This document shows, piece by piece, positions 6,537 through 52,300 of a stretch of DNA of 64,000 nt. Origin of the DNA: Pristiophorus japonicus (lineage: Eukaryota); NCBI RefSeq assembly GCF_044704955.1, contig NC_091990.1, positions 176,700,001 to 176,764,000 on the forward strand, read 5' to 3'. The position numbers and the translations under genes are program-made. The notes beneath the pieces were generated by a model. It was not told where the DNA came from. It searched no databases and saw only the letters and a list, made by a program, of their open reading frames with translations. Each line of letters opens with the position of its first letter. Within the stretch, counting starts at the first letter, position 1.

Positions 6537-6653
6537 CTTTATAATAGAGCCGCATGTAGAGGAAAATTCCTGTTGCTATTACTGCAACAGAAATAATAAT
6601 GCTCGCAATGATGCTTCCAACTATTGATCCTGTGGCCAGACGAATTTCTGCTT
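6537..6653 (-). CDS. Gene B transmembrane exon (EAEIRLATGSIVGSIIASIIISVAVIATGIFLYMRLYYK)
   Basis: ttacag| acceptor, G|gtaaac donor, 117 nt; same length as, and aligns without gaps to, the gene A TM exon. Confidence 0.9.
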
Positions 6654-9600
6654 CTGTAAAAGAAAAGTTACATATTTCCCATATTGGATCTTTTTTAATG
6701 GTTCCACAAGTCACTAGTGTAAAACTGCATTAAGTGTAAAACTATATAAAAGAGTAAAGTATACCAGGGAAATACTTAGCACAGCTCTGGACCAGCCAAT
6801 CAGAGAAAGTGCTCACAAATATCAGGCATTTGTTTTAACACCCGAGTGTCTCATATTTGCAACTATATAAAAGAGTAAAGTGTACCAGGGAAATACTTAG
6901 CACAGCTCTGGACCAGCCAATCAGAGAAAGTGCTCACAAATATCAGGCATTTGTTTTAACACCCGAGTGTCTCATATTTGCAACTTAGTTGTGTTTCTTG
7001 GAAAACTGGCTATTGGCAAGTTAGAAAGCAACGTCCCACAAGGATCAGCAATGGGCTTACATTAATGATTTTGGCTTCGGAACAAGCAAACCAATATCAA
7101 AATTGCAGGTGATACTAAACTCGGGGGGTGAGGAAGGACAGGTATGGCTAACACTGAGGAAGAATGCAACACGAGAAGACATTGGGGGGAAAATTGCAGT
7201 CGGTACGAACGCATCAGACCCGAAAAAAATCTTTGCAAGTACCTGGTGATCCCAGAAGAACGTAGGATTCAGGTCAGTGGCCTAGATTCACTGTGCAGCG
7301 CACAGGGAGATGTCTTTCATGTACGTACATGCTGGACCACCAATCACTATGCAGTATTCTCATTGATACAAATGGGAGCTCTGTTTGTACGGGCTCCCAT
7401 TACTATCAATGAGAAAACCCCCTAAAACACTGAAACACAACATAATAAATAAATAAATAAATAAATAAAACACCTCACATATTTTAAATTAACTGAAATT
7501 AAATGTAATTAAATGTTTTTAAAAATATTTTTTTTTGACTTTTTTTTTTAAAATGTGTTTTAATAGTGTTAAACTTACCTTAATGGACAGGGTTTTTAAT
7601 ATAAAAATAAGTGTTAAATGTAATTTTTATATGTTTTAAAAGTGTTACACTGGTAAAAAAGTAAGCTATGCGCCTGCTTTTACCAGGCGTAAAAGTTTGA
7701 AGGACATTTGCTGGGCATGAGTTGAGCAAATAGCCCAATCTCTGCTGCGCGGATGGATGTCCTTCTCCCGGGGATGCGTAGGATCTGTATGCAAAAATCT
7801 TGACAGATCGCAAAAGTTGGTTCTCGGCGCATGCGCATCGCGCCCCGAAAACCGGCTTTTGCGAGGCCTTGTTGGATCTGTGCGCACTTCGTACGGACCC
7901 AGCGAGGCTGGAATTTTCGGTCCATTAGAAAATGTGCAGACTGGGCAGTTAAGTAACAAATGAACATTAACATGGATAACTGTGAGGTGATGCACCTTGG
8001 TAGGAAAAATAGAAACATCACCCGACATCCTAGAACATAAAAAATGGAGTAGAAGATCAAAGGGATCTGGGGATACAAGTGAACAAATTAGTAAAAGCAA
8101 CATCGCAGCAAAGGCATTAAAATTGTTAACAAAACACTGGGATTTATTTCTAGGTGTACAGAATTTGTTAAATTTGTATAGGACCCTGTTCAGGCAGCAA
8201 TTAGGAGTACTGTGCACAGTTCTGGACCCCTAATATAAAAAGGACATAGATGCACTGGAGAAAGTGCAAAAAAGATTTACAGGGATGGTACCAGAACTGA
8301 GATATTACAGATATTGGAAAAGATTGAACAGGTAAAGACTTAGAGGTCACCTGATAGAGATCTTTAAAATTATTAATGGGTTGGACAGTATAGATGTGGA
8401 GAGAATATTTCCACTTATGGGAGAATCCATAACTAAAGACCATAAATACAAGATAGTTACTAATGAATCCAATAGTGAAATAAAGAGAAATTTCTTTACT
8501 CAATGTGGTTTGAATGTGAAACTCATTACCATAGGACATGGATGTGGCAAATAACTTGGATGCTTTCAAAAGCAAACTAGACGAGTAAATGAGAGAAAAG
8601 GGAATAGAAAGATATACTGAAAGGCTGAGATGAAGCAGATGGAATGGGAGAAGACTCGTGGAGTATAAACACCAGCACAGCCTAGTTGAGCCGAATGTTC
8701 TATTTCAGTGTTGTATATTCAATGTAAAAATCTTAGTCAAGATTGGAACCTACTCTCTGAGGAACAATGGTCGTAGGCTAATTTCCTACTAAAAAGATTT
8801 GTTAATGTAATGAAGTGGAAAATATTGGTCAAATAAACAAATTACAATTAACCTTTCACAAGAGTCATGAAAAGTCATTGAGACATATGTTGAGGTCAGA
8901 ACTGGATGTTTGGAAAGGAAAAGGTGTCCAGGTTATTGGATGGAACACAAGTCTAGTATTTAAAAATGCTTTCCATGGATTCAAAAAACCTCCCACAAAA
9001 TGCTCAAAACCGTAGAAAAATAATTATTCACAATATATACATGTAATCTAATTTACTGTGGGAAGAAGTCAATAGCAGAGTTCTGTATTAACACCAATTT
9101 AAAACCTTTTGTAAAAATACATCAGTTTAATAAACAAATTACAATTAACCTTTCTCAAGAGTCATGAAAAGTAATTGAGACATATGTTGAGGTCAGAACT
9201 GGATGTTTGGAAAGGAAAAGGTGTCCAGGTTATTGTTCAAAAGGCCATTGCCTTTCTGTATCAAACGAATCCATAAAAAAGCGTAAATTGCATCCTCTAT
9301 AAAAATTAAAACTACAATACATCGGTTAACACTGGAGTGCTTTTCAATACTAACTTAACCAAAATGTTTTGTGCTTTGCATTTTAATAAAAAGCCAAGAC
9401 CACCACAACTGACCTTTCAAAGTCACGAAAGCAGTCACCAAGTATGGCTCTGAAAAAGTCTTGTGTGTCACACGGCATTGGAAAGTACTGCCAATGTCTT
9501 CTACATGAGGTTCCAATCTAACTTCAGTGGTTACATTACATGTTCCATCGGGGTTTTTAACTGGTGGAGCGATGCAAATGTCAGTTAATAGTTTTGTTTC

Positions 9601-12600
9601 TCCTTGTGATGGGGTTGACTGAAGCCATTCAGCATTGCTGTCACAAGGATAATAGCCACTTAACTGGCAACCCAAGGCCATCTCTCCACCAGTGCCAACT
9701 TCCACAATTTTTTCTGAAACCACAGTCACTGTGGGACGTGCTGCCAAAACAAACAGGTACATTAGCATCACTAATAACAGTGACGATACTTCAAAAGTAA
9801 TTAATTGGATTGGATCTGTGCATATTAAAATAAATTGGAGAAAAGGTAGCAGAGGCATTATTACATATATATATTTATATATAATCATTAGAAAAGGGAA
9901 TAGTGCCAGAGGACAGGTATTTAAAAGGGGTGTTAAACAGGGGTCATGGAACTATAGAACAGTATGTGTAACATCAGTTGCAAGAAAAATAATGGAATCT
10001 TTACTCAAAGATGTAATAGAAAAACATCTAGGGCCCAAGTTTCCACACGATAAAAAACGGGCGCCCCTCTGAGCTGGGCGCCCGTTTTTCGCGCCTAAAA
10101 AAAACCGCGCTATTCTCGAGCGCCCTGCAGCTCCTTGTCTGCCTGGCGCGGCGCCCAGGGGGGCGGAGCCTACACTCGCGCCGATTTTGTAAGTGGGAGG
10201 GGGCGGGTACCATTGAAATTAGTTTTTTTCCTGCCGGCAACGCTGCGCGTGCGCGTTGGAGCGTTCGCGCACGCGCAGTGTGAAGGAAACATTGGCACTC
10301 GGCCATTTTTGTAGTTCTTTGTAGCTGTTTAATTTTTGAACATTTTTTAATAAAAGCACATTACCCTTCCATGATCAGCACTGAGGCTTCTTGCAGCAGT
10401 GAGAAGGTACAGGAAGCCTCAGAAAGTTGAGGCAGCCGTTTCCCTCCCCACCCCCGCCCGTCATCGGGAACGAACGGAACGGCTCCTCCCCCCTCTCCCC
10501 CCCGCCCCCGCGGGAACGAACGGAACGGCTCCCCCCCCCCCGCGGGAACGAACGATGGCTGAAGCACTTTCACACAGGTAGGAAGATGGTTTATTTAATC
10601 TTTTCTTTGCTTATAAATGTTTATTCAGATTGGATTTATTTGTATAATATTTGTAAAGTATAAATAAGGATTTATTATAGAATTTAATGACTTCCCTTCC
10701 CCCCCCCCCTCGTTCTGGACGCCTAATTTGTAACCTGCGCCTGATTTTTTTAATGTGTAGAACAGGTTTTTTCAGTTCTACAAAAATCTTCACTTGCTCC
10801 ATTCTAAGTTAGTTTGGAGTACGTTTTCACTGTGGAAACTTTGAAATCAGGCGTCAGTGGCCGGACACGCCCCCTTTTGAAGAAAAAATTGTGTTCCAAA
10901 GTGGAACTGTTCTACCTGCCTAGAACGGCAGAAAAAAAATGTGGAGAATTGCGATTTCTAAGATAGTCCGTTCTCCACCAGTTACTCCTAAAAATCAGGC
11001 GCAAATCATGTGGAAACTTGGGCTCCTAGAAACCAAAAATATAATTAAGAGTAGTCAGCAGATTTCAATAGGGAAGGTCATGCTTGATCAACCTTATTGA
11101 ATTCTTTGAAGAAGTAACAGAAAGAGTAGACAAGGGTAATGCAGTAGTTACAATATATTTGAATTTTCACATGGCCTTCAATGAGGTACCACATAGTAAA
11201 CTCATGACTAAGATCAGCTCAAATGGATTCAGGAGACATGTAGCAGAGTGATTAGCAAGTTGGCTGCAAAACAGAAGAGAGTGGATAAAGGTGGGAAGTG
11301 GGGTTCCACAGGGATCGGTCCTAGGACCACATTGTTCATAATTTACGTAAACGATTTGAACTCAGGAACCGGAAGTAACTACGGTTAATTATGATTGACA
11401 ATTAAGTGTTAATGCAGCACACATCAGTGGGCAACAATATGCTTATTTGAGGCTTATGTTTTATTTCCCTTTGTATATGCTGACTGTTACACTTTTACAT
11501 TACATCTAGCTCTTGTTAATTCAATTAGTGAATGATATACAATACATTGAAAAATACATGATTTGATACCAATATGTATTGTTTTGTATTTGATATTGTT
11601 AAATATATAAAGGAACATGATTGGGGATACATTTGGCAATGTTGTGAAGTTTACATTGGTATTATTTTGTTCTGTTAGCTATAGTTCATTGCGTATGCTG
11701 TAAGCAAGGTTTGTGAAATGTAAAAAAAAGTTTGCATTTTAAGAAACTCCAGCATTTGTACAAATACTTTGTCTAAAAACTTGATCACTTAATCAAGTGA
11801 TTTGCCTATGTTTATATCATTCCATTATTAGAATTTGAACAATACCAAGCAGAGAGAGATATCCATAAATCTGGCAAGTTCCCTAAAGGTGATGAGAAAG
11901 TTCCAACTAATTGTGAGCTCTGCATGGCTGTCTGAAAATTAGACGGCATTCATTGGTTATTACTAATTCTTATTATTGTATCAGCTGTAGTGTGCCAGAA
12001 GGATCAGATAATCATAGTGTGCAAGTGAAGGTAAAGAAAAATTGTTGTTAGAACCTCCTTCTACTTCTGCTGGGATGAAAGTTAGAATGCTTTCAAACTT
12101 TCATTTTGATGCTACAGCACATAAAAGTCAGCGTCAACTGAGTACTTTAACTCCCACCAACCCAAGCACCTTACAGAATCAACTACCTTTGACCAGTCCT
12201 TTTGGTGATCACCTTAATTAAATTTTACTGTGCATCATACAAATAAAATGTTTCAAAGTCTGAATGAGGATTGTCAGATTGTCTGGCAACTTCTACACAC
12301 ATGTATTATTGGGCCATTAATAAATGTATACTAATCAGTTCAGAAAGCTTAAGACAGTAGATGCAAAGCATTTTCTTTTTTAATACAGGTAGTTCGGATG
12401 AAAGATCAACCTGAAACTTTAACTCTTTCTCTTCACAGATTCTGCCTGGCCTGCTGAGAGTTTCCAGCATTTTCTGTTTTTATTTCAGATTTGCAGCTTC
12501 AGGTGTATATCGATTTTATATTTAAGGGTATTTCATTTGCAAGATTTTGTTTCCAAAAGCAGCTTTCATAGAAAGACAAACTGTTATGATATATGAACAC

Positions 12601-15600
12601 GCATGGCATTGTTACACTGCAATGTGCAACAGTTTACAGTATTGTACATAAATCAGCTTACCTAAAACCTCTAGCTTTATTGTCTTAGAGGCTTTATAAT
12701 TTGGTGAAATAAAAACATCACATCGATACTGTCCAGTGTGTTTAAATGTGACACTTTTTAGCAACAGTGACATGTTTCCACTTAGAATTGAGCTTTCTGA
12801 CAGCTCAGCTTCTTTCCATTGCTCATTTATTACTCCATGCATGTAGACAAAGGGCTTTGAATTTCCAGTGTCACTAGTGAAAGCCCATAAAACTCCCAAG
12901 TTGTTTGCGCTCAGTGTAGACCCGGTGAGTTCAGCAATTTCGCACTGTAGAAGTCCATTTTCATGAAACATTACTTCCACAGAAGGTTGACTCACTTTCA
13001 ACTCCAACTTTCCATCTGCAGATTCAATAAGAACATGATGCTGTTTTATTAGCGTCCACCATACAAGTGTGCCGATATTTACTTCAACTAACATAGGTGG
13101 TGCGGCAAAGACCATTTGGTCCAACTGTTCCACACAAGCCTCTCCCACCCTTCATCTAACCCCAACAGCATAACCCTTCTATTCCTTTCTCTCTTATGTG
13201 ATTATCTAAATATTCCAAAAACTTCAGCTCATTGTGATCTCTGCTGCCATATCACAATTCGCACCAAGTCCCGCCTCAACCTTGATCCACCCCTGTGCTC
13301 GCTGACCTTCAATAGTCCGGCAATGCCTCAATTTTAAAATTATCATCCTTGTTTTCAAATCCCTCCAACCTATACCATATATGTATAGCCCTACAACTCC
13401 TCCAATTTTGGCCTCTTGCACATCACCGATTTTAATCACTCCAAAATTTTTGGCCATGCCTTCAGCTGCCGACGCCCAAGCTCTGAATTTCCCTCCTAAA
13501 ACCTCCCTGCCTCTCTCTACTCCTTTAAGACATCCCTTAAAACCCACCTCTTTGAACAAGCTTTTAGTCAGCTGTCCAAATATCCCCTCAGTGTCAAATT
13601 TTGTTTGATAACACTCCTGAGAAGTGCCCACCCACCTTCTAAAGGCAGAATCCTTGCTGGAATGTGCTCCCAGTACCTCACCCAGGTAATCATTCATTCA
13701 CAGACAAGCCAAAAGAGCAAGTTTCAATCAGAAGAGGAAAACATCGTAGCTGAGCAACTTTGGAGGGTATCTTCTCACCAAGTTTCTCCCAAAAGTGAGT
13801 CCTTGCTCGGCTATAGCTCCACAGGCACAGCTGAACTGGACTTTGCCTATCAAGTAGTCACTATTTACCTGCGAGCCACAACAGTGAGTGTCAGCAGCTG
13901 ATACGACCAAGGAGAACATCACAGGTAAGCCTAATCCTGTCCTCACCCAACATTCACACACGCAAGATTCCAGTAACCCCAAACAGCAATGAGAATGCTA
14001 GACAATTTCAAATTCTCCAACTCCCAGTGCTGAAGCCATAAGTACAATCCTACTGCCGATTGAGCACTGGTAAAACGTTGTGTGCGCGCGAAGGGGAAGG
14101 GGTCGAGGGAGTGGGGACGGAGGGGCAACGCGCGGGGGGTCGCAGGTCGTGCGCGGGGGAACGGGGGGCGCACGCAGGGACCGGGGGGAGATCGTGCGTG
14201 GGGGAACGGGGGGCCGGGGGGGGGGGGGAGGTCGTGCGCGGGGCGAAGGGGGGCGCGCGGGGGGACGGGGGGGCGGGCCACGGGGGGGTTGGGGAGACGC
14301 GCGCCGTGACAGGGGGGGGGGGGCGCGCGGGGACGGAGGGGGTGCGGGGACAGAGAGCGGGGAATGGTGAGAGGGGAATAGTGACAGAATGGGCTTAGAG
14401 AGAGTGGGTATAGAGAGAGGGTGGGGAAGGAAGGAAGGATGTGAAAGCCTTGGAGAGGGTACAGTGGAGATTTACTAGAATGGTACGAGAGATCAGGTAC
14501 TTCAATTTTGTGGAGAAACTGGCATTTTGCTCCTTAGAGTAGAGAAGGTAAGGGGAAGTAAAAACACAAAATGCTGAAAATACTCAGCAGGACAGGCAGC
14601 AACTGTGGAGACACAAGCAGAGTTAAGGGTTCTGGTCGATCATCTTGCGTCAAAACTGGAAAAGATTAGAGATGCAACAGGTGTTAAGCAAGTACAGAGG
14701 CAGGGAAAGGAGGGAGGGGAGGAAAGAAAAGGGAAGGCCTGTGATAGGCTGCAAGCCAGGAGAGATTAAATGACAAACGGGTGGCTGGATATAGGACTAA
14801 TCATCATAGGCAGTCCCTCGGAATCGAGGAAGACTTGCTGCCACTCTTAACACGAGTTCTTAGGTGGCTGAACAGTCCAATATGAGAACCACAGTCCCCG
14901 TCACAGGTGGGACAGAGTTGTTGACGGTAAGGGTGGGTGGGACAGGTTTGCCGCACGCTCTTTCCGCTGCCTGTGCTTGATTTCTGCATGCTCTTGGCGA
15001 TGAGACTCGAGGTGCTCAGTGTCCTCCCGGATGCTCTTCCTCCACTTAGGGCGGTCTTTAGCCAGGGACTCCCAGGTGTCAGTGGAGATGTTGCATTTTA
15101 TCAGGGAGGCTTTGAGGGTGTCCTTGTAACGTTTCCTCTGCCCAGCTTTGGCTCGTTTGCCGTGAAGGAGTTCAGAGTAGAGCGCTTGCTTTGGGAGTCT
15201 CGTGTCTGGCATGCGAACTATGTGACCTGCCCAGCGGAGCTGATCAAGTTGCTCAGTGCTTCAATGATGGGGATGTTAGCCTGGTCGAGAATGCTAACGT
15301 TGGTGCGTCTGTCCTCCCAGGGGATTTGTAGGATCTTGCGGAGACATCGTTGGTGGTATTTCTCCAGCAACTTGCGGTGTCAACTGTACATGGTCCATGT
15401 TTCTGAGCCATACAGGAGGGCGGGTATTACTACAGCCCTATAGACCATGAACTTGGTGACAGTTTTGAGGGCCTGGTCTTCAAACACTCTATTTGCGGTT
15501 AAGAAAGCAAATGGCATGTTGGCCTTCATAGCAAGGGGATTTGAGTACAGGGGCAGGGAGGTGTTGCTACAGTTGTACAGGGCATTGGTGAGGCCACACC

Positions 15601-18600: not shown

Positions 18601-19678
18601 CATTGAAAGTTGGCATGCAGGTACAGCAGGCGATGAAGGCGGCAAATGGCATGTTGGCCTTCATAGCTTGGGGATTTGAGTATAGTAGCAGGGAGACCTT
18701 ACTGCAGTTGTACAGGGCCTTGCTGAGGCCTCACCTGGAATATTGTGTTCCGTTTTGGTCTCCTAATCTGAAGAAGGACGTTCTTGCTATTGAGGAAGTG
18801 CAGCGAAGGTTCACCAGACTGATTCCCAAGATGGCAGGACTGACATATGAGGAGAGACTGGATCGACTGGGCGTGTATTCACTGGAGTTTAGAAGAATGA
18901 GAAGGGATCGCATAGAAACATATAAAATTCTGACGGGACTGGACAGGTTAGATGCAGGAAGAATGTTCCCGATGTTGGGGAAGTCCAGAACCAGGGGACA
19001 CAGTCTAAGGATAAGGGGTAAGCCATTTAGGAGAGGTGATCTTATCGAAACGTGTAAGATTATGAGGGGGCTCGACAAGGTGGATGCAGAGAGGATGATG
19101 GGGGAGACTAGAACTAGAGGGCATGATCTTAGAATAAGGGACCGTCCATTTATAAACAGAGGTGAGGAGGAATTCCTTATCTCAGAGGGTTGTAAATCGG
19201 TGGAATTCGCTGCCTCAGAGAGCTGTGGAAGCTGGGACCTTGAATAAATTTAAGGCAGAGATAGAGAGTTTCTTAACCAGGAAGGGGTTATGGGGAGCGG
19301 TCTGGGAAGTGGACTTGAGTCCATGATCGGATCAGGCATGATCGCATTAACTATCATAGGTACAGGAGTAAGCCATACGGCCCCTCGAGCCTGCTCCGCC
19401 ATATAATAAGACACGGGGAGAGGGCGGGTGGGAAAGAGCTGGTCACTTGTCACCATTTTAGCCCCGGCTGCTTCAATTCCATCTCCAAGCCTTCTTCCCT
19501 GGGACCCCGCCGAGCCCCAGCACAGCCCCACCCGACCCGACCCCGGTCAGACCGTGTGATTCCCAGCCTCCAGGCCCGAGGCCCAGGAGCCGCGCACTTT
19601 ACCTGAAAGCCGCATCAGAGCGGCCAGCGCGACCACCGCCGGCACCAGGAGCGGCAGCGAGTCCCGGCTCGGGCCCAT
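6537..19678 (-). CDS. Gene B (5' part): B7/B7-H6(NCR3LG1)/tapasin-like receptor, SP-IgV-IgC1-TM; continues beyond the window start
   Basis: Four exons (19603-19678, 12662-13015, 9414-9740, 6537-6653) joined by phase-1 GT-AG introns into one frame; no stop in the TM exon. Confidence 0.88.
6740..6985. repeat. 121-bp tandem duplication (2 copies)
   Basis: Unit starting AACTATATAAAAGAGTAAAG at 6740 and 6861, nearly identical. Confidence 0.92.
6990..8730 (+). mobile_element. Old CR1 fragment hosting a MITE
   Basis: Degenerate VPQGS / KxAGDTK / LYRTL...QF motifs. Confidence 0.7.
7184..7923. mobile_element. MITE (PIF/Harbinger-like) with ATT TSD
   Basis: Imperfect TIRs, ATT on both sides; removing it restores the CR1 sequence (EDI-RKCADWA). 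Confidence 0.7.
8832..9235. repeat. Direct duplication of 107 bp (8832-8938 and 9129-9235)
   Basis: Near-identical AATAAACAAATTACAATTAACC...GGTTATTG copies. Confidence 0.9.
9414..9740 (-). CDS. Gene B extracellular Ig C1-set exon
   Basis: ggcag| acceptor, G|gtcagt donor, 327 nt; LGCQLSGYYP...EW...NPDGTCNVT...FQCRVTH, both canonical Cys present. Confidence 0.92.
10031..11025. mobile_element. Non-autonomous Harbinger-like DNA transposon, CTA TSD, inside a CR1 fragment (~9900-11380)
   Basis: TIR GGGCCCAAGTTTCCAC / GTGGAAACTTGGGCTC; CTA duplicated; CR1 frame IEKHL-ETKNII resumes. Confidence 0.85.
12662..13015 (-). CDS. Gene B IgV-set exon
   Basis: ctgcag| acceptor, G|gtaagc donor, 354 nt; LQCE...LGVLW...GNMSLLL...HTGQYRC (B7/tapasin-type GNxSL motif). 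Confidence 0.92.
14085..14420. repeat. G-rich low-complexity CpG tract in gene B intron 1
   Basis: Many G5-G11 runs with GCGCG motifs. Confidence 0.75.
14800..15490 (-). mobile_element. RTE-clade LINE 3' fragment
   Basis: YRAVVIPALLYGSETW and [15 protein letters not shown] motifs; ATGATGA-type tail. Confidence 0.85.
15495..16165 (+). mobile_element. Young CR1 3' fragment
   Basis: [11 protein letters not shown]...RTRGHSL; (TTTCTATG)n tail. Confidence 0.9.
16270..16770 (-). mobile_element. Penelope-like element fragment (GIY-YIG endonuclease)
   Basis: FTYSSFNLVYCIHC...LYTWETKRRLGDRFAEH. Confidence 0.8.
16785..18100 (-). mobile_element. CR1 3' fragment with an RTE-tailed short element inserted (~17115-17690)
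   Basis: Similar to ~1335-2340; the insert ends GGGACTGCCTATGATGA like the RTE tail. Confidence 0.7.
18100..19350 (+). mobile_element. CR1 RT/3' fragments (two subfamilies joined near 19030)
   Basis: [20 protein letters not shown]; RGDLIET...TRGH segment appears twice. Confidence 0.85.
19603..19678 (-). CDS. Gene B signal-peptide exon (MGPSRDSLPLLVPAVVALAALMRLS/D)
   Basis: GTGATGG start context in a CpG island; 25 codons + 1 nt; hydrophobic core; CAG|gtaaag phase-1 donor matching the V exon. Too short for the ORF track. Confidence 0.85.
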
Positions 19679-19737
19679 CACCCCCTCTCCGGGGCTCCGC
19701 TTTTCTCCCGCACCGACCGTCAAACAGCCGCCTTCTC

Positions 19738-19749
19738 ACTTTCACTTTC
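19738..19749 (-). promoter_or_regulatory. ISRE / IRF-binding element GAAAGTGAAAGT
   Basis: Perfect GAAANNGAAA tandem core 60 nt upstream of the ATG. Confidence 0.75.
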
Positions 19750-19752
19750 GCC

Positions 19753-20045
19753 GCCAGCAACAGGCGGAGGTGCGCGCGCAGCCGCCCCCCGGCAACGGAT
19801 GGAGGTGCGCGCGCAGCCGCCCCCGGCAACGGATGGAGGTGCGCGCGCAGCCGCAGCCGCAACCGCAGCCGCCCCCAGCAACGGATGAAGGTGCGCGCAG
19901 CCGCAGCCGCCCCCGGCAACGGATGAAGGTGCGCGCAGCCGCAACCGCAGCCGCCCCCAGCAACGGATGGAGGTGCGCGCAGCCGCAGCCGCAGCCGCCC
20001 CCGGCAACGGATGGAGGTGCGCGCAGCCGCAGCCGCCGCCGCCGC
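19753..20045. repeat. GC-rich minisatellite, 7 units with core CCC(A/G)GCAACGGATG(G/A)AGGTGCGCGC and variable GCAGCC spacers
   Basis: Directly visible tandem repeat; the first unit is degenerate. Confidence 0.92.
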
Positions 20046-20109
20046 TGGGGGGCGCTGCCAACAAAGTATGGAGCGTTGTCGATGGGCAACAAAGTCAAAG
20101 TTGTTCGAC

Positions 20110-20430
20110 AAATCATCAACACAGGCAGTCCCTTAGAATGAGTCTTTAAAGGGTGGCTGAACAGTCCAATACGAGAACCACAATCCCTGTCACAGGTGGG
20201 ACAGAGGGGAAGGGAGGGTGGGCAGGTTTGCCGCACGCTCTTTCCGCTGTCTGCGCTTGTCTTCTGCGTGCAATCAGCGACAATACTCGAGGTGCTCAGC
20301 GCCCGTCCGAATGCACTTTCTCCACTTAGGGCGACCTTTGGCTCATTTGCCATGAAGGAGTTCCGAGTAGACCGCTTGCTTTGGGAGTCTCGCATGTCTG
20401 GCATGCGGACAATGTGGCCTGCCCAGTGGA
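20110..20430 (-). mobile_element. RTE 3' fragment
   Basis: Homologous to 14800-15240. Confidence 0.8.
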
Positions 20431-20442
20431 GCTACATAAAAA

Positions 20443-23400
20443 CATAAGAACATAAGAATTAGGAACAGGAGTAGGCCATCTAGCCCCTCGAGCCTGCTCC
20501 GCCATTCAATAAGATCATGGCTGATCTGGCCGTGGACTCAGCTCCACTTACCCGCCCGCTCCCCGTAACCCTTAATTCCCTTATTGGTTAAAAATCTATC
20601 TATCTGTGACTTGAATACATTCAATGAGCTAGCCTCAACTGCTTCCTTGGGCAGAGAATTCCACAGATTCACAACCCTCTGGGAGAAGAAATTCCTTCTC
20701 AACTCGGTTTTAAATTGGCTCCCCCGTATTTTGAGGCTGTACCCCCTAGTTCTAGTCTCCCCGACCAGTGGAAACAACCTCTCTGCCTCTATTATGTCTA
20801 TCCCTTTCATTATTTTAAATGTTTCGATAAGATCACCCCTCATCCTTCTGAACTCCAACGAGTAAAGACCAAGTCTACTCAATCTAACATCATAAGGTAA
20901 CCCCCTCACCTCCGGAATCAGCCTAGTGAATCGTCTCTATACCCCCTCCAAAGCCAGTATATCCTTCCTTAAGTAAGGTGACCAAAACTGCACGCAGTAC
21001 TCCAGGTGCGGCCTATACAGTTGCAGCAGGACCTCCCTGCTTTTTTGTACTCCATCCCTCTCACAATGAAGGCCAACATTCCATCCGTCTTCCTGATTAC
21101 CTGCTGCACCTGCAAACTTTTTTTGGGGGGGATTCATGCACAAGGAGGCCTTGAAAATGTCTGCTGTGTCACCCAGGCGGGTGGCACGGTTTAATGTTTA
21201 TGTTTATTTTCAGGTAAACTCAAAAGAATTTCATGCACAAGGACCACCAGGTCCCTCTGCACCTCAGCATGTTGTAATTTCTCTCCATTAAAATAATATT
21301 CCCTTTTACTGTTTTTTTTCCCAAGGTGGATGACCTCACACTTTTCGACATTGTATTCCATCTGCCAAACCTTAGCCCATTCGCTTAACCTATCCAAATC
21401 TCTTTGCAGCCTCTCTGTGTCCTCTACACAACCCGCTTTCCAACTAATCTTTGTGTCATCTGCAAATTTTGTTACACTACACTCTGTCCCCTCTTCCAGG
21501 TCATCTATGTATATTGTAAACAGTTGTGGTCCCAGCACCGATCCCTGTGGCACACCACTAACCACCGATTTCCAACCCGAAAAGGACCCATTTATCCCGA
21601 CTCTCTGCTTTCTGTTAGCCAGCAAATTCTCTATCCATGCTAATAGATTTCCTCTGACTCCGCGTACCTGTATCTTCTGCAGTAACCTTTTGTGTGGCAC
21701 CTTATCGAATGCCTTTTGGAAATCTAAATATAGAAACATAGAAACATAGAAAAAAGGTGCAGGAGTAGGCCATTCGGCCCTTCTAGCCTGCACCGCCATT
21801 CAATGAGTTCATGGCTGAACATGCAACTTCAGTACCCCATTCCTGCTTTCTCACCATATCCCTTGATTCCCCTAGTAGTAAGGACTTCATCTAACTCCTT
21901 TTTGAATATATTTAGTGAATTGGCCTCAACAACTTTCCGTGGTAGAGAATTCCACAGGTTCACCACTCTCTGGGTGAAGAAATTCCTCCTCATCTCAATC
22001 CTAAATGGCTTCCCCCTTATCCTTAGACTGTGTCCCCTGGTTCTGGACTTCCCCAACATTGGGAACATTCTTCCTGCATCTAACCTGTCTAACCCCGTCA
22101 GAATTTTAAACGTTTCTATGAGGTCCCCTCTCATTCTTCTGAATTCCAGTGAATACAAGCCCAGTTGATCCAGTCTTTCTTGATAGGTCAGTCCCGCCAT
22201 CCCGGGAATCAGTCTGGTGAACCTTCGCTGCACTCCCTCAATAGCAAGAATGTCCTTCCTCAGGTTAGGAGACCAAAACTGTACACAATACTCCAGGTGT
22301 GGCCTCACCAAGGCCCTGTACAATTGTAGCAACACCTCTCTGCCCTTGTACTCAAATCCCCTTGCTATGAAGGCCAACATGCCATTTGCTTTCTTAACCG
22401 CCTGCTGTACCTGCATGCCAACCTTCAATGACTGATGTACCATGACACCCAGGTCTCGTTGCACCTCTCCTTTTCCTAATCTGTCACCATTCAGATAATA
22501 GTCTGTCTCTCTGTTTTTACCACCAAAGTGGATAACCTCACATTTATCCACATTATACTTCATCTGCCATGCATTTGCCCACTCACCTAACCTATCCAAG
22601 TCGCTCTGCAGCCTCATAGAATCCTCCTTGCAGCTCACACTGCCACCCAACTTAGTGTCATCCGCAAATTTGGAGATACTACATTTAATCCCCTCGTCTA
22701 AATCATTAATGTACAGTGTAAACAGCTGGGGCCCCAGCACAGAACCTTGCGGTACCCCACTAGTCACTGCCTGCCATTCTGAAAAGTCCCCATTTACTCC
22801 TACTCTTTGCTTCCTGTCTGACAACCAGTTCTCAATCCATGTCAGCACACTACCCCCAATCCCATGTGCTTTAACTTTGCACATTAATCTCTTGTGTGGG
22901 ACCTTGTCGAAAGCCTTCTGAAAGTCCAAATATACCACATCGACTGGTTCTCCCTTGTCCACTCTACTGGAAACATCCTCAAAAAATTCCAGAAGATTTG
23001 TCAAGCATGATTTCCCTTTCACAAATCCATGCTGACTTGGACCTATCATATTACCTCTTTCCAAATGCACTGCGATGACATCCTTAATAATTGATTCCAT
23101 CATTTTACCCACTACCGATGTCAGGCTGACCGGTCTGTAATTCCCTGTTTTCTCTCTCCCTCCTTTTTTAAAAAGTGGGGTTACATTGGCTACCCTCCAC
23201 ATCCATCGGTACACCTCATCCACCATGCTCGTTATATCCTCAAAGAATTCCAGTAAATTAGTTAAACATGATTTCCCTTTCATGAATCCATGCTGCGTCT
23301 GCTTAATTGCACTATTCCTATCTAGATGTCCCGCTATTTCTTCCTTAATGATAGTTTCAAGCATTTTCCCCACTACAGATGTTAAACTAACCGGCCTATA

Positions 23401-38559: not shown

Positions 38560-39084
38560 GGGCCCAAGTTTCCACATGATTCGCGCCTGATTTTTAGGAG
38601 CAACTGGTGGAGAATGGACTATTTTAAAAATCGCAATTCTCCGCATTTTTTTTTCTGCAGTTCTAGTCAGGTAGAACAGTTCTACTTTGGAACAGAATTT
38701 TTTCTTCAAAAGGGGGCGTGTCCGGCCACTGACGCCTGATTTGAAAGTTTCCACAGTGAAAATGTACTCCAAACTAAAGTAGAATGGAGCCAGTGAAGAT
38801 TTTTGTAGAACTGAAAAAACCTGTTCTACACATTAAAAAAATCAGGCGCAGGTTACAAATTAGGCGTCCAGAACGAGGTGGGGGGGGGGGGAGAGGGGGG
38901 AGGGAACTCATTAAATTCGACAATAAATCCTTATTTATACTTCTACAAATATTATACAAATAAATCCAACCTGAATAAACATTTATAAGCCAAGAAAAGA
39001 TTAAATAAACCATCTTCCTACCTGTGTGAAAGTGCTTCAGCCAGGGAGAATTCTGCAGCCGTTCGTGCCGCTGAGCGAGAGAGG

Positions 39085-39120
<36 letters not shown>

Positions 39121-43017: not shown

Positions 43018-43331
43018 TTAAAATTCCAAAGAAAAAGTTTGTTCCACAACTTCTTTAGTTTCTGAGTGAGTAACCTTGCAACTGATTACTGTGCCCTGAT
43101 CAGATGCATCAGGAGCGAATTCTATTTTTGTTACTGAAGAGAAGAGACCATTTGCAGCAATTTCAGGCTTTGTATTATCCACTGGTCCTATGAAAGGCTG
43201 CTTTTCTTTGAACCACTTAACTTCAATTTCTTGAGGTGCATAATCAGTCAGTGAAACAGTGAACGTTGCCACTTTGTTTTTCTCTGGACGTGTTGGGTTG
43301 CATCTGATTTCAGACACAGTGGGAGCAGAAC
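43018..43331 (-). CDS. Gene A post-TM Ig C1 domain 6, last coding exon (B-strand Cys absent)
   Basis: ttttaag| acceptor; [19 protein letters not shown]...NGLFSS...ISCKVTHSE...LEF-TAA, then G|gtaaat. Confidence 0.88.
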
Positions 43332-46300
43332 CTTAAAACAGAATGGAATATGCAAATACTGAGTTTTCTGTGGACTGAAATACATTTACCAGAATGTTGA
43401 GACAAATTAAGATAACTTTGGCAAACTGAATTCTTTAATTTGGAAAATTCAGTTATTATACTGATACGGTGCAGCTGGGACCACGAGTGACGAAGGTAGG
43501 ACCGGAGGAGGATGTGGAAGAGCCACAACTGCAGATAAATATTCAACAGGACACCATTTTTTAAAGACTAAAAATAGATGTCATCGGCCCAGATGATATG
43601 CATCCCACAATACTGAAGGACGATACTAAAAATCTTTGGGAATGGGAATTCTTCCAAGTTGACTAGAAAACTGCAAATGTTAAAAATTTTGTTCAAGAAA
43701 GTGAAAAAAATTCAGGGAATTAGTCTTGCCTCAATTGTGGGGAAACATATACACACAGTCCATAAGACATAATTAAATGACTCAACAATTAGAAAGGCAT
43801 GGACAGTCAGCAGGAGTTTACAAAAGGCAAGTTGTGTTTTGGGTGAGCCCAAAAGGTAGTACCTCTGCATGGCAAACATCTGCACCCAGACGGGTGGTTT
43901 TAGTTATCATCATCGGCAGTCCCTCGGAATCGAGGAAGACTTGCTTCCACTCTTAAAATATGAGTCCTTAGTTGGTTGAATAGTCCAATAGTCCCTGTCA
44001 CAGGTGGGACAGATAGTCGTTGAGGGAAAGGGAGAGTCTGGTTTGCCGCACGCTCTTTCCGCTGCCTGCGCCTGATTTCTGCACGCTCTCGGCGATGAGA
44101 CTCGAGGTGCTCAGCACCTTCCCAGATGCACTTCCTCCACTTAGGGCGGTCTTCGGCCAGGGACTCCCAGGTGTCAGTGGGGAATGTTGCACTTTTTCAG
44201 GGAGGCTTTGAGGGTGTCCTTGTAACGTTTCCTCTGCCCATCTTTGGCTCGTGAAGGAGTTCCGAGTAGAGCGCTTGCTTTGGGAGTCTCGTATCTGGCA
44301 TGCGGACAATGTGGCCTGCCCAGTGGAGCTGATCAAGTGTGGTCAGTGCTTCGATGCTGGGGATGTTTGCCTGGTTGAGGACGCTAATGTTGGTGGTTTT
44401 AGCAGCAATTGGTCCTGATGACACACCCAGCTCTCACTTAAGGCTCCAAGCACCACACCCGGGACCTTGCCTCAGCTGGCATGCTAAACTTGGAGAGAGT
44501 AGTCAAGGAGTAACGATTGAACACGTGTCGAATTCCAGTCCTCTGAAACCAAACATTCAGCCCCGTCACTGCTGATCTGACAGATGGGAATTTAGTAGTT
44601 GTGATTGACTAACTGAATTTCTTTGACTAATTCACATTTCCTATCAAGTTATACTGGCTCCCTGCCATAACTACAGCGGGCAGAAGAAAATTGGATGGAA
44701 AGCCATTCCACTAGCCTCCTGCATTGTCACTTCCATGATTTCCCACTGAAACCCAGTCATCAGGTGTCCAATCCATTCACTTAAATATGATCAGAAGTAT
44801 TGTCGAGAGGCAAAAGAAAGAAATAGGACTTTTGACTTTTTTCTCATAATTTTACCACAGCAATGTTGGATGGTATGAATGCCTTATCTTATTGGTGAGC
44901 TACTGCTGTCGCGTGTGATGGTGGCGGTTTAAAATTTAAAGGACCCAAGGGAGGGCAAGAGACTGTAGAGGAATTAATTGCACTCCCTGACTCCAATTTT
45001 ACAAAGTTTAAAAAAAGGCTACTTCTCTTAATTCAACATTTCTTAATTTTCCTGTAATCTTATTAATTCTACTATCAAGGTCCTGTACCCATCTAGGTCC
45101 ATTTACAATGAATAGAAATACATTAGAAACAAACATTCAAGCACAAATTGCCTTCTTCAAAAATTAAATTTTATTGATAACTATGATCAGTTGTTACCTA
45201 AATCAATCATTATTATAGATTCCAGCATAATTAGGGTTTTACACCAGTTTAACGTACCTGGAAGTGTTAAATATAGCTGTTTTTTTATACTGTTGGATAA
45301 AGCTTTATGTTCCAATACAAAGGCAAATTCCTTATTGTGATCCAAAGCTGTTGGTGTCAACTTCAGGCAGGAAACTAACCGATAATATCCACCTTCTTCC
45401 TTCTCAGGGTCGGTATTTTTGACTCCATTATGGACAGGCTTGTCATCCATTAGCCAGTTGGTTGAGATTATTTTTGGAGAAAAATTACTTACAACACACT
45501 GAAGAAGAAGAGGCTGGCCATATGATGGAATTTCTGGCTCAAGAATGATGTCAGAAACTATTGGAATTCCTGTTTGAAAAGAAGAAGAATTGTTTACAAG
45601 AATGACAATGAGCAATATGTACCTGGTGTACCTGTAGTCAACCCTGCCCCTCCCAGACCATGAAGTATTGTAATTTGATGAAATTCTGCGGACCAATACT
45701 ATAGCACAATAACAAAGTAAACTAACAATCTGAAAGATGGCACTAATACTATTTTAAATTGTATCCATGTTAGCAAACCAGTCTGACATGGTAAATGATT
45801 GATGCATACTTTAAAACATTTAACTCCTCGTTATTGTGGGTAAACAACAACAAACGGGTATCAACTTTATTACCGTTGTAATCTTAAATTCAACATTAAA
45901 AATCTGTAATTTTAAAGTTAACTTGGCCTCTCAACATTCTACTTCTCAACTTTCAATCCCTTCGTTAGTTTATTGCAAACAACCTGAAATTGGACTCTTC
46001 AAATACTGTATTACAAACAATTAACGCTTTCAGACAATAACAAAGCATTTATTTTACCTTTACGTTCTATTACTATCCAAGACTGTTTTAACCATCAACA
46101 TTTTGATGCAGAAAAGACAAAGGCTTGGATTTCACAATCAGCGCCGAAATGACAGCGCTTGCTGCTGACCTCGAAGAAAGCTGCCCACAAAGATCTAGCG
46201 ATCTCTGACATGGATGTCACCTTTCCCAATGTTAAATTCATTCTGGCGTCACCTATAGGGGATCTTCAGCAACAGTGATGTCATCAAGCAGGCTAAGCAA

Positions 46301-49300
46301 CCAATCACATTGAAGAATACTCAAACAGCAAACCAGGAAGTAAAATGTACTTTTTAATCATTTTACAGAGAATGAAATAAAGATTGAAAGCTACACATGG
46401 GATTAAGAAACTCGTATCATAAACAAACTTAAAAAATATTTTTTTTACATTCCAGAAATATAAAATTAGTTTTTCAGGCCCAGAGAGGGTTTTCACCAGT
46501 AATTATGACTTATACACTGTTTAAAAACCCAGTTACACCTCATTCAACAAGGTTTAACTTTTTGGGGTGTTTTTACAGCAAAATTAGAATGTAAAAAATG
46601 GAGGTTCACGTTAATTCAAGTGTTTTATAAAGATTTCTGTCTGCGGGGACTTCAACAGTGCACCCTGTGGAGGTGCAGGGAATCACTGAAAGCAACTTCT
46701 GGATTTTTGCGATTAACTGCGCATGTGCGGACGCCAGAAGTTTGTGTCAGTTTCACGAGGAATGCTGACAGTTTCACCGTCATTCCAACTGCAAGTTCCA
46801 GGCCAGTAAGTTCTGAGGCTAAATGAAATTGTGCATTTACTGGAATTTCAGAATAACTTACCCATTATATGTTGATCTATGAGCTAGTAAGAGTAGTACT
46901 GTAAATCAAGATTAGTGCAAGGAAGGTTTAATATGTTGATATTCAAAGAGCTCAATTTAAAGGCAAAATTTTTGCATCACCCATTACTTATAATAATTCC
47001 CCTTGGGTCGGTTTGCCCCTTAATTCTTAGTCCATGGTAGTAACATTTGATATTTTCAGCTGCTCGCAATGTACTGAAGGTGATCAGTCACTTACTTTGG
47101 CTTGATTCCTGACCATGTTTTGCCTTTTATCCCGTTTTCAGAATTAGTCAATCTCTGAATTCCCCCATCTCCACCCCAATGCCTAGAATTCCAGGCATGG
47201 TTGGTCTGTCAGGTAAAACTACTATGCTATTTATTCAACCTATTCCAAATTATGAGCATTCTGTGTTGTGGCCCTGGAAGCAGCTAGGTTGAGTCTCCCA
47301 AAAAGATTAATCATTCTTGGCTAAATTCAAACCTAGGCGGTGGAAGGACAATACTAACCAAACACTTCTTCTCAGTTTTTCTAGGTTTTTAAGCCCAAGT
47401 AAATTGTAATTATTCAAATCAGTCAATAATCAAGAAATTGTGTGTTTATCATGGATCTTAGCAACCCAGGTATTACTCAGATATGAGATGATCTGAAGTA
47501 TCATACCAGGCCTGTGCGTGCTAAAACCAAGATCAACTCGTAGATTTGATAAGATACAGTACAGGTACAGTAGCATAGTGGTTATGATATTGGACTATTA
47601 ATCCAGAGGCTTGGACTAATAATCCAGAGACAGAAGTTCAAATCTCAACATGGCAGCTAAGGATTTATTTTAGTTAAATAAATCTGGAATTTAAAAATAA
47701 GTTAGCACCAGTAATGGCGACCATGAAACTACCAGATTGTCGTAAAAACACAACTGGTTCACTAATGTCCTTCAGGGAAGGAAATCTGCCGTCCTCGCCC
47801 GGTCTGGCCTATACGAGACTCCAGACCCACAGCAATGTGGTTGACTCTTAACTACCCTCTGAAATGGCGTAGCAAGCTACTCAGTTGTACCAAATCGCTA
47901 CGACAGAGTCAGCACTGTGGGAGTACTTTCATCACAAGGCGGCGGCTCAACCCCACCTTCTCAAGAGCAATTAGGGATGGGCAATAAATGCCTGCCATGT
48001 CAGTGACGCCCACATCCCATGAACGAATAAATGATTTGAGCTCAATATTACCACTGTATAATAATTGGGTTACTTGCTTATAAACATTCATAATTATTAA
48101 TATTTTAACAGCTGTTTTGATGCAAAAATAAAAATAGTTTATGGTTGAATATAAGTATTAGAATTTCAAAATAACTCTAATCCAACCAGGACCCCATTTC
48201 ATACTCATCTAATAAAATAGAAAGGGAGTGGAAAACAAAAAATATTACTATAAAGTATATATTCCATAAGCAAGAGTGCATCAACATTTTCTGTCAAAAT
48301 TATTTTGATACAACATATTTGCGTTAAATTTGCATTTAGTTACTTAAGTATGTGAAAATTTGTAGAAAACAAATTGAAATGTGCAGCTTACTAGAAGTTT
48401 AGTGTTATTGCAGTCCAGTATAGAAACAAATATGCATTTAATTCATACCTCCAAGATGTAAGGTGAAACAGGACCTTGAAGGTCTGTGTGAAGTTGGGAA
48501 ATGAAGAACCTCAACTTTGAATTCAATTTGATGATATTCTGGCTTAATTAACAATTTCCATTGACTTTCACAGCAGAAATAACCAGTTTTTTCATCTATA
48601 CGGGGCTCCGCAGAAATGATTCCTGGATCATCAGTTCTCTCATCATTTTTGAACCACATGAACATGGAGTCCTTTGGATAAAAGCCATGTGCATAGCATA
48701 CAATTGTTGCTTCTTTTCCTGCTGCTGGGAATTCTGGTTCACATCTTATGTATCCTACTAATGGAGAAGATACTGTAACAACACAAAAAAAGTTAGATGT
48801 AGTATCTTGCAAGCTACTTCAATAACCCTCAGAAAATAAACCAGCACGGAAGTGGCCAAAACTCGCGGGAGGACAGAAGATTGGGAAACTTTTAAAAGCC
48901 AGCAAAGAATGACTAAAAAAATGATTAAGAAAAGGAAGATAGACTATGAAAGTAAACTAGCACGAAATATAAAAATAGATAGCAAGAGATTCTGCAGGTA
49001 TATAAAAAGAAAAAAAAAGAGTGGCTAAAGTAAATCTTGGTCCCTTAGAGGACGAGAGCAGGGAATTAGTAATGGGGAACATGGAGATGGCAGAAACTCT
49101 GAACAAATATTTTGGATCAGTCTTTACGATAAGAGGACACTAACAATATTCCAACAGTGGATAGTCAAAGAGCTATAGGGGGGGAGGAACTTAACACAAT
49201 CACTAAGGAAGTGGTACTCAGTAAGCTAATGAAACTAAAAGGTAGATAAATCCCCTGGACCTGATGGCTTGCATTCTAGGGTTTTAAGAGGAGTAGCGGC

Positions 49301-52300
49301 AGGGATAGTGGATGCATTGATGTAATTTGCCAAAATTCCCTGGATTCTGAAGAGGTTCCAGCAGATTGGAAAACTGCAAATCTAACACCCCAATCTAAAA
49401 AAGGAAGCAGACAAAAAGCAGGAAACTATAGATCAGTTAGCCTAACAACTGTGGTTGGGAAAATGTTGAAGTCCATTATTAAAGCAGGAGCAGGACATTT
49501 GGAAAAGCATCATTCAGTCAGGCAGAGTCAGATGGATTAATGAAGGGAAAGTCATGTTTGACAAATTTGCTGCAATTCTTTGAGGATGTAACAAATAGGG
49601 TGGATGTGGTGTATTTGGACTTCAAGAAAGCATTTAATAAGGTGCCACATAAAAGGTTACTGCACAAGATAAAAGTTCACGGGGTTGGGGTAATATATTG
49701 GCATGGATAGAGGATTGGCTAACTAACAGAAAACAGAGAGTCAGGATAAATGCTTCATTCTCGGATTGGCAATCAATAACTAGTGGGGTGCCACAGGGAT
49801 CAGTGCTGGGACCCCAACTATTTACTATCTATATTAACGACTTGGATGAAGGGACTGAATGTAACGTAGCCAAGTTTGTTGACAATACAAAGATGGGAGG
49901 AAAAGCAATGTGTGAGTAGGACACAAAAAACCTGCAAAAGGACATAGGCAGGCTAAGTGAGTGGAGTATAATGTTGGAAAGTGTGAGGTTATGCACTTTG
50001 TCTCGAAGAGCAAGTTATTATTTAAATAGAGAAAAATTGCAACATGCTGCAGCGGGATCTGGGGGTCCTGGTGCATGAAACGCAGCAAGTGATCAAGAAG
50101 GCCAATGGAATCTTGGCCTTTATTGCAAAGGGGATGGAGTATAAAAGCAGGGAAATCTTGCTACAGTTATACAGGGTATTGATAGAAACATAGAAAATAG
50201 GTGCAGGAGTAGGCCATTCGGCCCTTCTAGCCTGCACCGCCATTCAATGAGTTCATGGCTGAACATGCAACTTCAGTACCCCATTCCTGCTTTCTCACCA
50301 TACCCCTTGATTCCCCTAGTAGTAAGGACTTCATCTAACTCCTTTTTGAATATATTTAGTGAATTGGCCTCAACAACTTTCTGTGGTAGAGAATTCCACA
50401 GGTTCACCACCCTCTGGGTGAAGAAATTCCTCCTCATCTTGGTCCTAAATGGCTTACCCCTTATCCTCAGACTGTGCCCCCTGGTTCTGGACTTCCCCAA
50501 CATTGGGAACATTCTTCCTGCATCTAACCTGTCTAACCCCGTCAGAATTTTAAACGTTTCTATGATGTCCCCTCTCATTCTTCTGAACTCCAGTGAATAC
50601 AAGACCAGTTGATCCAGTCTTTCTTGATAGGTCAGTCCCGCCATCCCGGGAATCAGTCTGGTGAACCTTCGCTGCACGCCCTCAATAGCAAGAATGTCCT
50701 TCCTCAGGTTAGGAGACCAATACTGTACACAGTACTCCAGGTGTGGCCTCACCAAGGCCCTGTACAACTGTAGCAACACCTCCCTGCCCCTGTACTCAAA
50801 TCCCCTCGCTATGAAGGCCAACATGCCATTTGCTTTCTTAACCGCCTGCTGTAACTGCATGCCAACCTTCAATGACTGATGTACCATGACACCCAGGTCT
50901 CTTTGCACCTCCCCTTTTCCTAATCTGTCACCATTCAGATAATAGTCTGTCTCTCGGTTTTTACCACCAAAGTGGATAAACTCACATTTATCCACATTAT
51001 ACTTCTACACATGGAATACTGTGTAGTTTTGGTTTCCATATTTAAGAAAGGATATATTTTTGCTTTGGAGGCAGATCAGAGAAGGTTCACTAGGATGATT
51101 CTGGACATTAGGGGGTTGACTTATGAGGAAAGGTTGAGTAGGTTGGGCCTCTACTCATTGGAATTCAGAAGAATGAGAGGTGATCTTATCGAAACGTATA
51201 AGATTATGAGGGGGTTTAGTAAGGTGGATGCAGAGAGGATGTTTCCACTGATAGGGGAGACTAGAACTAGAGGGCATAATCTTAGATTAAGGGACCGCCC
51301 ATTTAAAACTGAGATGAGCTCTCTGAGGGTTGTAAATCTGTGGAATTCGCTGCCTCAGAGAGCTGTGGAAGCTGGGTCATTGAATAAATTGAAGACAGGT
51401 AAAGACAGTTTCTTAACCGATAAGGGAATAAGGGATTATGGCGAGCGGGCAGGGAAGTGGACCCAAGTCCATGATCGGATCAGCCATGATCGTATTAAAT
51501 GGCGGAGCAGGCTCGAGGGGCTGTATGGCCTACTCCTGCACCAATTTCTTACGTTCTTATGTTCACTTCGGGACCAGCGGCGAATGCATTCACCTTACTT
51601 ACCCACTGGAACCAGTTTAAGGTCAGTTTTTCTGGATTTTGCGATACTTTCGTGCTGGAATTCACAAGTTAATGTCTTCCCCAAATCTTCCCTAACTGGA
51701 ATGAATTTTAAACGACTTATAAAGAAATAAAGGTGATCCTTTCCAAAGACTGCTTCAGTATCAGTATCCATTTCGTCCATGACGATATTATCCTTTTTCC
51801 AAATAACTTTAATATCTTTTGGAAAGAAGGAATATATTCTACAAGATGCGTGTGCATATTCATCTGCAATTGCGGCTTCTGGCATCAGTTTTATATTATC
51901 ACATTTTGGGATAGCTGAGCAAAAAAGGAAAATACAAATTGAAGAATTTTGAAAATAACAGATTTTTAAAAACTTTAAATTGAATCATTGAAAAGAAAGT
52001 TAACAGCTTAAACAGAAACTGATATTCAGCTCGACAGGTACACTGTCACAAGCTACAGTACAAATGTTTGATATTATACATCTGTATCATCACCCCTCCA
52101 CAAAATCCAACAAACCAGAAGTAAAAATAAAAAGCTACTCCACTATCACTGGAAAGGTCCATTCCTTGCACCTCCCCGATCACTTCTGATTGTGCCCGCT
52201 CTTGAAGGGATATTCTAACCACCCACAGGAACTGTATTCTGTGAGATCCACAGAATCGAACAATAAGTGTCGTATACCAACACACTGTTAAGCAAACAGC

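Follow-up and report, generated by a model that had tools for sequence, protein, structure and literature searches.

Genes of MHC classes I and II are controlled through the SXY module, a single spaced arrangement for RFX5-RFXAP-RFXANK, CREB/ATF1 and NF-Y, and MHC class I promoters have an ISRE nearby. The S box stands about 15–16 bases upstream of X. At targets of NLRC5, the Y box is found at 20–22 or 48 bases and spacing is a critical determinant; X boxes reversed relative to the gene also occur at NLRC5 peaks (PMC4374748). As B7-family V-C genes targeted by CIITA/NLRC5, human BTN2A2 and BTN3A may serve as the best precedent for a functional X box in a B7-family gene; BTN3A uses an atypical module, the S-X region of which was not activated by NLRC5 until a CCAAT box was included (PMC7753138). 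For salmon cells, a role of STAT1/IRF1 was favoured by the authors over that of an enhanceosome (PMC7573153). RFX5 and RFX7 share a box with a single half-site (PMC8287911, PMC11344851), usually close to CCAAT boxes (PMC11344851), and RFX5 has 7,877 human sites (PMC8287911). Another control is exerted at overlapping IRF-E/BLIMP1 sites, for which IRF1/IRF2 and BLIMP1 compete, as at PSMB8 and PSMB10; a human BTN3A3 probe has a GAAAGT double core of this kind (PMC2938208).

In this study, we analysed the promoter of a gene, termed gene B, in a 64-kb stretch of DNA of Pristiophorus japonicus, which as a whole is called the window. An earlier note had taken this promoter for an ISRE combined with a minisatellite of MHC X1-box-like (RFX) motifs. 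Our best reading, with a probability of about 55%, is that a B7-H6-like gene has an IRF-regulated promoter in a CpG island, accompanied by a minisatellite that is local and probably polymorphic, and not an NLRC5/CIITA module.

Sequence data and scoring

Four of seven sequencing runs were examined, one genomic (X1) and three non-genomic (X5, X6, and X7). The samples of the latter belong to one study, and their contigs were taken as transcript contigs solely because they are spliced, no run being on record as RNA. Motif frequencies were compared with shuffles of the whole window or of a collapsed promoter of 220 bases with the array reduced to one unit. As its six copies represent one event, one unit was scored.

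Gene B is transcribed and spliced

Gene B is a real, spliced immune-type gene, and the stretch under study is its promoter and 5′ end. The following parts lie within the window:

19603..19678, minus strand: coding portion of exon 1, with a signal peptide of 25 residues and a phase-1 GT donor
12662..13015, minus strand: Ig V-domain exon (best PDB match B7-H6/NCR3LG1)
9414..9740, minus strand: Ig C1-domain exon (limits read from the sequence)
6537..6650, minus strand: transmembrane (TM) exon
19679..19825, minus strand: 5′ leader under spliced contigs (ends at 19757, 19784, and 19825)

The source gene corresponds to an uncharacterised 969-residue UniRef protein of P. japonicus, to which the V exon is 100% identical and whose residues 1–25 are exon 1 of the window. 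Its architecture is leader-V-C1-TM followed by six Ig domains. For these six domains no exons were found within the window; they presumably sit beyond its position 1. Contigs of all three non-genomic runs break at 19603, and the loose end of the X5 and X7 contigs is the exact start of the V exon; thus, gene B is transcribed and spliced as read. The 5′ ends of the contigs lie at 19825 (X5), 19784 (X6), and 19757 (X7), but such ends are not equivalent to start sites, and the main start site cannot be placed from them. At least some RNA takes in the IRF element described below and up to two repeat units. The contigs reveal expression, but no level or condition. The gene strand has no upstream ATG in 19679–20110, the leader shows nothing remarkable in its RNA structure (z −0.31), and it has 0 matches in Rfam. 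Plus-strand and overlapping minus-strand ORFs across the repeat array were not accepted as genes, because a Pfam scan of one of them gave no match and the spliced reading accounts for the RNA.

Further details were noted along the gene. At 19638, all three spliced runs have G>A, by which Ala becomes Val at residue 14 of the signal peptide. The TM exon has tandem AG acceptors (6650–6653), consistent with isoforms of 969 and 970 residues, and the intron preceding this exon contains a near-perfect 121-bp tandem duplication (6740–6985).

Relationship to B7-H6 and topology of the protein

The leader-V-C1-TM ectodomain comes closest to B7-H6 (NCR3LG1). In PDB comparisons, B7-H6 is the closest solved relative of the V exon (E 1.6e-5) and ranks second of 822 matches for the C1 exon (E 1.7e-10). 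Thirteen more full-length relatives with 53–70% identity were found. Of these, 12 are named and come from sharks, rays, and a chimaera, whereas the remaining one is unnamed; a skate protein in the cluster of the latter carries the annotation NCR3LG1. Gene B and B7-H6 thus share the order leader-V-C1-TM, whereas the match is distant and gene B adds six Ig domains after the TM segment; gene B may be an orthologue of B7-H6 or may belong to a sister family. NCR3LG1 itself clusters with tapasin and TAPBPL (PMC13262535).

All 14 B-type proteins have a single hydrophobic segment beyond the leader, located after V-C1. Six C1-type domains follow the single TM segment in gene B (P0001, residues 290–969) and also in a second gene of the window, gene A (43021–57268), and a structure model has six beta-sandwich domains after this segment (mean pLDDT 72, pTM 0.37). 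This arrangement is kept across sharks, rays, and the chimaera, in proteins mostly annotated as uncharacterised, and the six domains are predicted to be cytoplasmic. Against the cytoplasmic side stand a glycosylation sequon at 447, which is kept in 10 of 13 proteins, and four conserved cysteine pairs after the TM segment; per 100 residues, sequon density is 0.68 after and 1.17 before the TM segment. The conserved sequon makes the cytoplasmic placement tentative. In the Atlas, there are chordate clusters of similar length and domain content. B7-like genes with intracellular Ig domains may have come up in work on B7-H6 evolution, so the architecture is not to be called unpublished. Our literature search, covering titles and abstract openings of the top 7–20 hits per query, gave nothing on the gene B family or on an X-box minisatellite, and neither this family nor such an array is described in the available portions of PMC10751288, PMC2913254, PMC4243378, PMC7936349, PMC7922096, PMC13262535, PMC12151841, and PMC3245922.

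Gene A and similarity of the first exons

43021..59524, minus strand: gene A, upstream paralogue (TM exon 59408–59524 and six C1-type exons)

Leader, V, and first C1 exons of gene A were not found within the window. The gene corresponds to a 978-residue UniRef protein with the same architecture as gene B. Both proteins are 35% identical overall, their V domains 21–33%, and they fall into separate clades with full support. The peptides of exon 1, compared for 12 of 14 B and 8 of 11 A proteins (the remainder having no usable leader), are 86% identical between A and B in Pristiophorus, 85% in Heterodontus, 100% in Cetorhinus, and 48% in Pristis, the fourth same-species pair. Values for pairs of close relatives are 85% (two Scyliorhinus), 83–92% (carpet sharks, and Carcharodon with Cetorhinus), and 76% (Scyliorhinus with Mustelus), and identities across orders are 31–71%. 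This identity table was used instead of an exon-1 tree, which with 25 columns had no well-supported fork. The pattern suggests concerted evolution or gene conversion of the 5′ ends of A and B, which would be the simplest reading and possibly takes in the promoter too; the 100% in Cetorhinus could also be caused by shared annotation. Another contig of X6 agrees with exon 1 along 46 bases, apart from 3 differences, and then, across a 9-base gap, has 12 letters encoding the gene A leader; as it follows this leader, the sawshark has two distinct expressed copies.

Separately, gene A isoforms of two lamniform sharks (P0018 and P0019; 742 residues) keep the leader and show no transmembrane segment, so that the Ig domains otherwise located after it would enter the secretory path.

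Promoter setting and IRF element

The promoter is of the TATA-less CpG-island type and is enclosed by interspersed repeats, one of which ends at 19411 and the other begins at 20138:

19451..20250, no strand: CpG island enclosing array, IRF element, and exon 1
20138..20433, minus strand: interspersed-repeat remnant bounding the promoter upstream and containing the nearest CCAAT (copies at 14863–15241 and 43960–44330)
20436..21146, minus strand: interspersed-repeat remnant (copies at 8 other places of the window)

We take these remnants to resemble the 3′ end of an RTE-type LINE and a CR1-type LINE, respectively; Pfam gave no match for them. Consensus motifs for GAS, NF-kB, and TATA are absent from 19590–20130. 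Two other CpG-rich segments (13951–14550 and 39001–39650) have GC-rich tandem repeats unrelated to the array, and a short unique stretch upstream of the array (20054–20110) contains a 9-base direct repeat and, at 20085, a further RFX-type half-site.

19738..19749, minus strand: IRF element, an ISRE-type direct repeat with two GAAAGT cores, also of BLIMP1 type
19718..19722, minus strand: TGACG CRE half-site (exact string)

The IRF element reads GAAAGTGAAAGT and lies at a distance of 59 bases from the ATG (A at 19678), and thereby the perfect IRF/ISRE motif that the earlier note had placed about 60 nt upstream of the ATG is confirmed. Its tandem GAAA cores with a 2-base spacer are close to the start site, about 10–80 bases from the 5′ ends of the spliced contigs, and it falls within the transcribed leader of at least some RNA. 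The IRF/ISRE consensus GAAASYGAAASY has a single match in the 64-kb window. It arises in 0.17% of 3000 shuffles of the collapsed promoter and somewhere in 19 of 100 whole-window shuffles; its significance depends on its position and was judged after the fact. Together with its flank, the element agrees with the published BLIMP1 motif (PMC2938208) in 12 of 13 positions. It resembles the overlapping sites of PSMB8 and PSMB10 (PMC2938208) in the BLIMP1 motif and in the IRF core AANNGAAA, but the candidate site of gene B sits in the 5′ leader of at least some transcripts. The TGACG half-site, also claimed before, is indeed present, but is not above chance, as it occurs in 27% of 3000 collapsed-promoter shuffles.

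As a sequence feature, the IRF element is well supported, and IRF control of gene B is likely in view of this sequence. The opposite view, that IRF-like 12-mer and array are both incidental, would make the array a neutral GC-rich minisatellite at a constitutive CpG-island promoter and the 12-mer unused or a repressor site only. Other GC-rich tandem repeats do occur in the window (14113–14272 and 39105–39315), the frequency of the 12-mer in whole-window shuffles and the binding of BLIMP1 to the same motif (PMC2938208) fit this view, and the spliced contigs in all three runs show expression, not induction. Nevertheless, we consider it improbable, because the only perfect IRF 12-mer of the window is found at the 5′ end of a B7-family gene, with the low local frequency given above.

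The array is a local compound minisatellite

19749..20045, plus strand: compound GC-rich minisatellite, six full units (19768–20014) plus a part-unit at each end
19753..19762, plus strand: X-like site of the degenerate part-unit, separated from the IRF element by 3 bases (RFX5/RFX7 core, 8 of 10)

The units are arranged head-to-tail at a single locus, as in a promoter VNTR, with about 7 periods in all (35, 34, 52, 38, 44, and 44 bp; unit range 34–52 bp). The motif CCC(A/G)GCAACGGATG occurs six times, starting at 19788, 19822, 19874, 19912, 19956, and 20000, and the degenerate form CCAGCAACAGG once, at 19754, which agrees with the six X1-like units and one degenerate unit reported previously. 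On the plus strand, a single X1-like 14-mer and a single Myb-type core (YAACKG) are found in every full unit, which also has one GC-box (GGGCGG) on the minus strand and a (GC)3–4 run; GC-box and Myb-type core are thus present in 6/6 units. Units differ in the (GC)3–4 run, in 0–3 internal hexamers, and at two A/G positions, and as slippage of (GC)n and hexamers varies the units internally, the array is compound. With up to 2 mismatches, the array 14-mer has 6 matches in 64 kb versus 0.54 expected, a number reached in 0 of 100 shuffles. This excess arises because one site was duplicated in tandem; the six copies are one duplication event. The site in the part-unit is in phase with the array and is possibly its seed.

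In the X5 contig, 1 base is missing at 19785 and 10 are added after 19811, giving a unit variant absent from the window. This suggests another array allele, the support being one contig end, and the array is probably polymorphic between individuals. Compared with promoter VNTRs multiplying factor sites, such as MNS16A at TERT, the array is likewise a local, GC-rich promoter array with variant units and hinted allelic variation, but unit and gene are different.

The array is confined to this locus. It might be suspected to consist of a dispersed transposable element, which the earlier note had named as an outcome that would speak against its reading, or to be an assembly artefact, the more so as the CpG island has interspersed repeats on both sides. 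Yet, no word of more than 10 bases is shared between the array and the rest of the window, including its repeats, and in the genomic run X1 all 11 contigs are 99+% alike and 0 run into unlike flanks. The 8 X1 contigs shown tile 19401–20033 without differences at a depth of 3–6 versus 5.3 in the flank. X1 is possibly the source of the assembly itself and therefore checks the assembly without being independent; its sensitivity is limited by the search at 90% identity, low depth, and a hole at 20034–20150, and the similar first exon of gene A was missed. At 90% identity, this explanation is largely refuted, and we regard it as extremely improbable.

X-like motifs do not form an SXY module

According to the earlier note, the units carry MHC X1-box-like (RFX) motifs and the gene is co-regulated with antigen-presentation genes; on this reading, an SXY enhanceosome of RFX, CREB, and NF-Y would recruit NLRC5 or CIITA. 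Against the DRA X1 14-mer quoted there, four units have 3 mismatches and two units have 2 (11–12 of 14). In 3000 shuffles of the collapsed promoter, up to 3 mismatches occur in 0.8% and up to 2 in 0.03%, which stands against our best reading, and four other sites at that level lie elsewhere in the window. It is the final four bases that account for the surplus likeness to DRA. When compared with the published RFX5/RFX7 core (PMC11344851), the units agree in 7 or 8 of 10 positions. The window has 435 sites with at least 7 of 10 and 52 with at least 8 of 10, and among 5000 shuffles 75% hold a site at 7 of 10 and 14% at 8 of 10. Scored on this core, the units are no better than chance. Also elsewhere in the window, GAAAGTGAAA is found at 43697–43706 within an intron of gene A, and a site at 35896–35909 between the genes agrees with the quoted X1 box in 12 of 14 positions; they show the background rate of such motifs.

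An X2 (CRE-like) box after X1 is absent at all 7 X-like sites, with 5–7 of 9 mismatches to the DRA X2 zone, and the TGACG at 19718 is not at X2 position. Likewise, no Y box (CCAAT/ATTGG) lies within 60 bases on either side and in either orientation of the 7 sites; the nearest CCAAT is at 20166, within an interspersed repeat. Two remarks of the earlier note are thereby upheld, namely that no Y box is adjacent and that the X-like motifs are inverted relative to the gene (sites on plus, gene B on minus strand), while the proposed module itself has neither X2 nor Y at any of the 7 sites. The locus is comparable to MHC genes in the X1-like 14-mer and the nearby ISRE, but in place of a single spaced module it has six copies in tandem, their orientation is opposite to that of the gene, and the RFX5 core is at chance level. 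The BTN3A1-3 and BTN2A2 promoters control B7-family V-C genes by RFX-dependent and IRF/BLIMP1-type elements (PMC7753138, PMC2938208), and the BTN3A3 probe has the same GAAAGT double core as the IRF element of gene B. BTN3A, however, needs a CCAAT box 13 bases from X (PMC7753138), which gene B does not have, and a repeat array is not mentioned for these promoters in the available text of both papers. The MHC reading of the array is weak, and recruitment of NLRC5 or CIITA with co-regulation of antigen-presentation genes is very unlikely. The likeness to the DRA box, the BTN targets of CIITA/NLRC5 (PMC7753138), and the reversed X boxes at NLRC5 peaks (PMC4374748) fit it, but they are outweighed by the missing X2 and Y boxes, the inactivity of the BTN3A S-X region by itself (PMC7753138), the critical spacing (PMC4374748), and the preference for STAT1/IRF1 in salmon (PMC7573153). 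As the RFX5/RFX7 core is common to thousands of non-MHC sites (PMC8287911), co-regulation with MHC genes would not follow even if the X box were bound.

RFX factors could also act without NLRC5 or CIITA, RFX5 or RFX7 binding one half-site per unit and cooperating with IRF1, so that unit number tunes expression. The palindromic X-box of RFX1-3, GTNRCC N1-3 RGYAAC (bioRxiv 2021.02.03.429678), is matched with one mismatch by 5/6 units and the part-unit, none being perfect. This too stands against our best reading, one mismatch being found in 7% of shuffles; the window has 16 sites with 0–1 mismatch. The half-site RGYAAC is intact in 6/6 units and the part-unit, the variation in it being the tolerated A/G, and the site of the part-unit is just 3 bases from the IRF element. 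Boxes with a single half-site are bound by RFX5 and RFX7 (PMC8287911, PMC11344851), and in C. elegans expression can be driven or tuned by X-boxes in tandem (bioRxiv 2021.02.03.429678, PMC3245922), but there tandem half-sites alone (5′ half) drove no expression (bioRxiv 2021.02.03.429678). Moreover, the core match is at chance level, the CCAAT box usual near RFX5/7 sites is absent, and sameness of the units is expected from recent duplication. Due to the GC-box and Myb-type core in every unit, RFX is not the sole reading. A functional RFX multimer is the main rival, but a rather doubtful one.

Proposed mode of action and meaning

For the preferred reading, an IRF-regulated CpG-island promoter with a local minisatellite, we propose that IRF1/IRF2, opposed by BLIMP1, act via the single IRF element and would render the gene interferon-responsive. 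A stretch of about 34 bp beside this element may have been duplicated locally, and slippage and unequal exchange may then have diversified the copies into a compound minisatellite, probably variable between individuals. Thereby, the array would multiply the sites of its seed, i.e. GC-box, Myb-type core, and imperfect RFX half-site, and may thereby alter how strong the promoter is at base level or which start site is chosen. The array would form no SXY module, making recruitment of NLRC5 or CIITA unlikely.

A more far-reaching combination appears quite unlikely to us: the array would be an allele-variable, multimerised RFX5/RFX7 half-site that cooperates with IRF1 and needs neither X2 and Y nor NLRC5 and CIITA, and a cassette of promoter and first exon would be repeatedly gene-converted between two B7-H6-like paralogues that predate the separation of sharks and rays, which would lock the co-expression of two receptors with six cytoplasmic-side Ig domains.

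The result is a modest one, namely a likely IRF-controlled promoter with a local repeat at a conserved, uncharacterised B7-family gene of elasmobranchs. If the X-like site were conserved and bound, it would show that B7-family genes of cartilaginous fish are controlled by RFX together with IRF, and the array would offer a natural allelic series on site number. The surrounding locus may outweigh the motif, with two ancient paralogues, six Ig domains after the membrane segment, and first exons that look homogenised within lineages.
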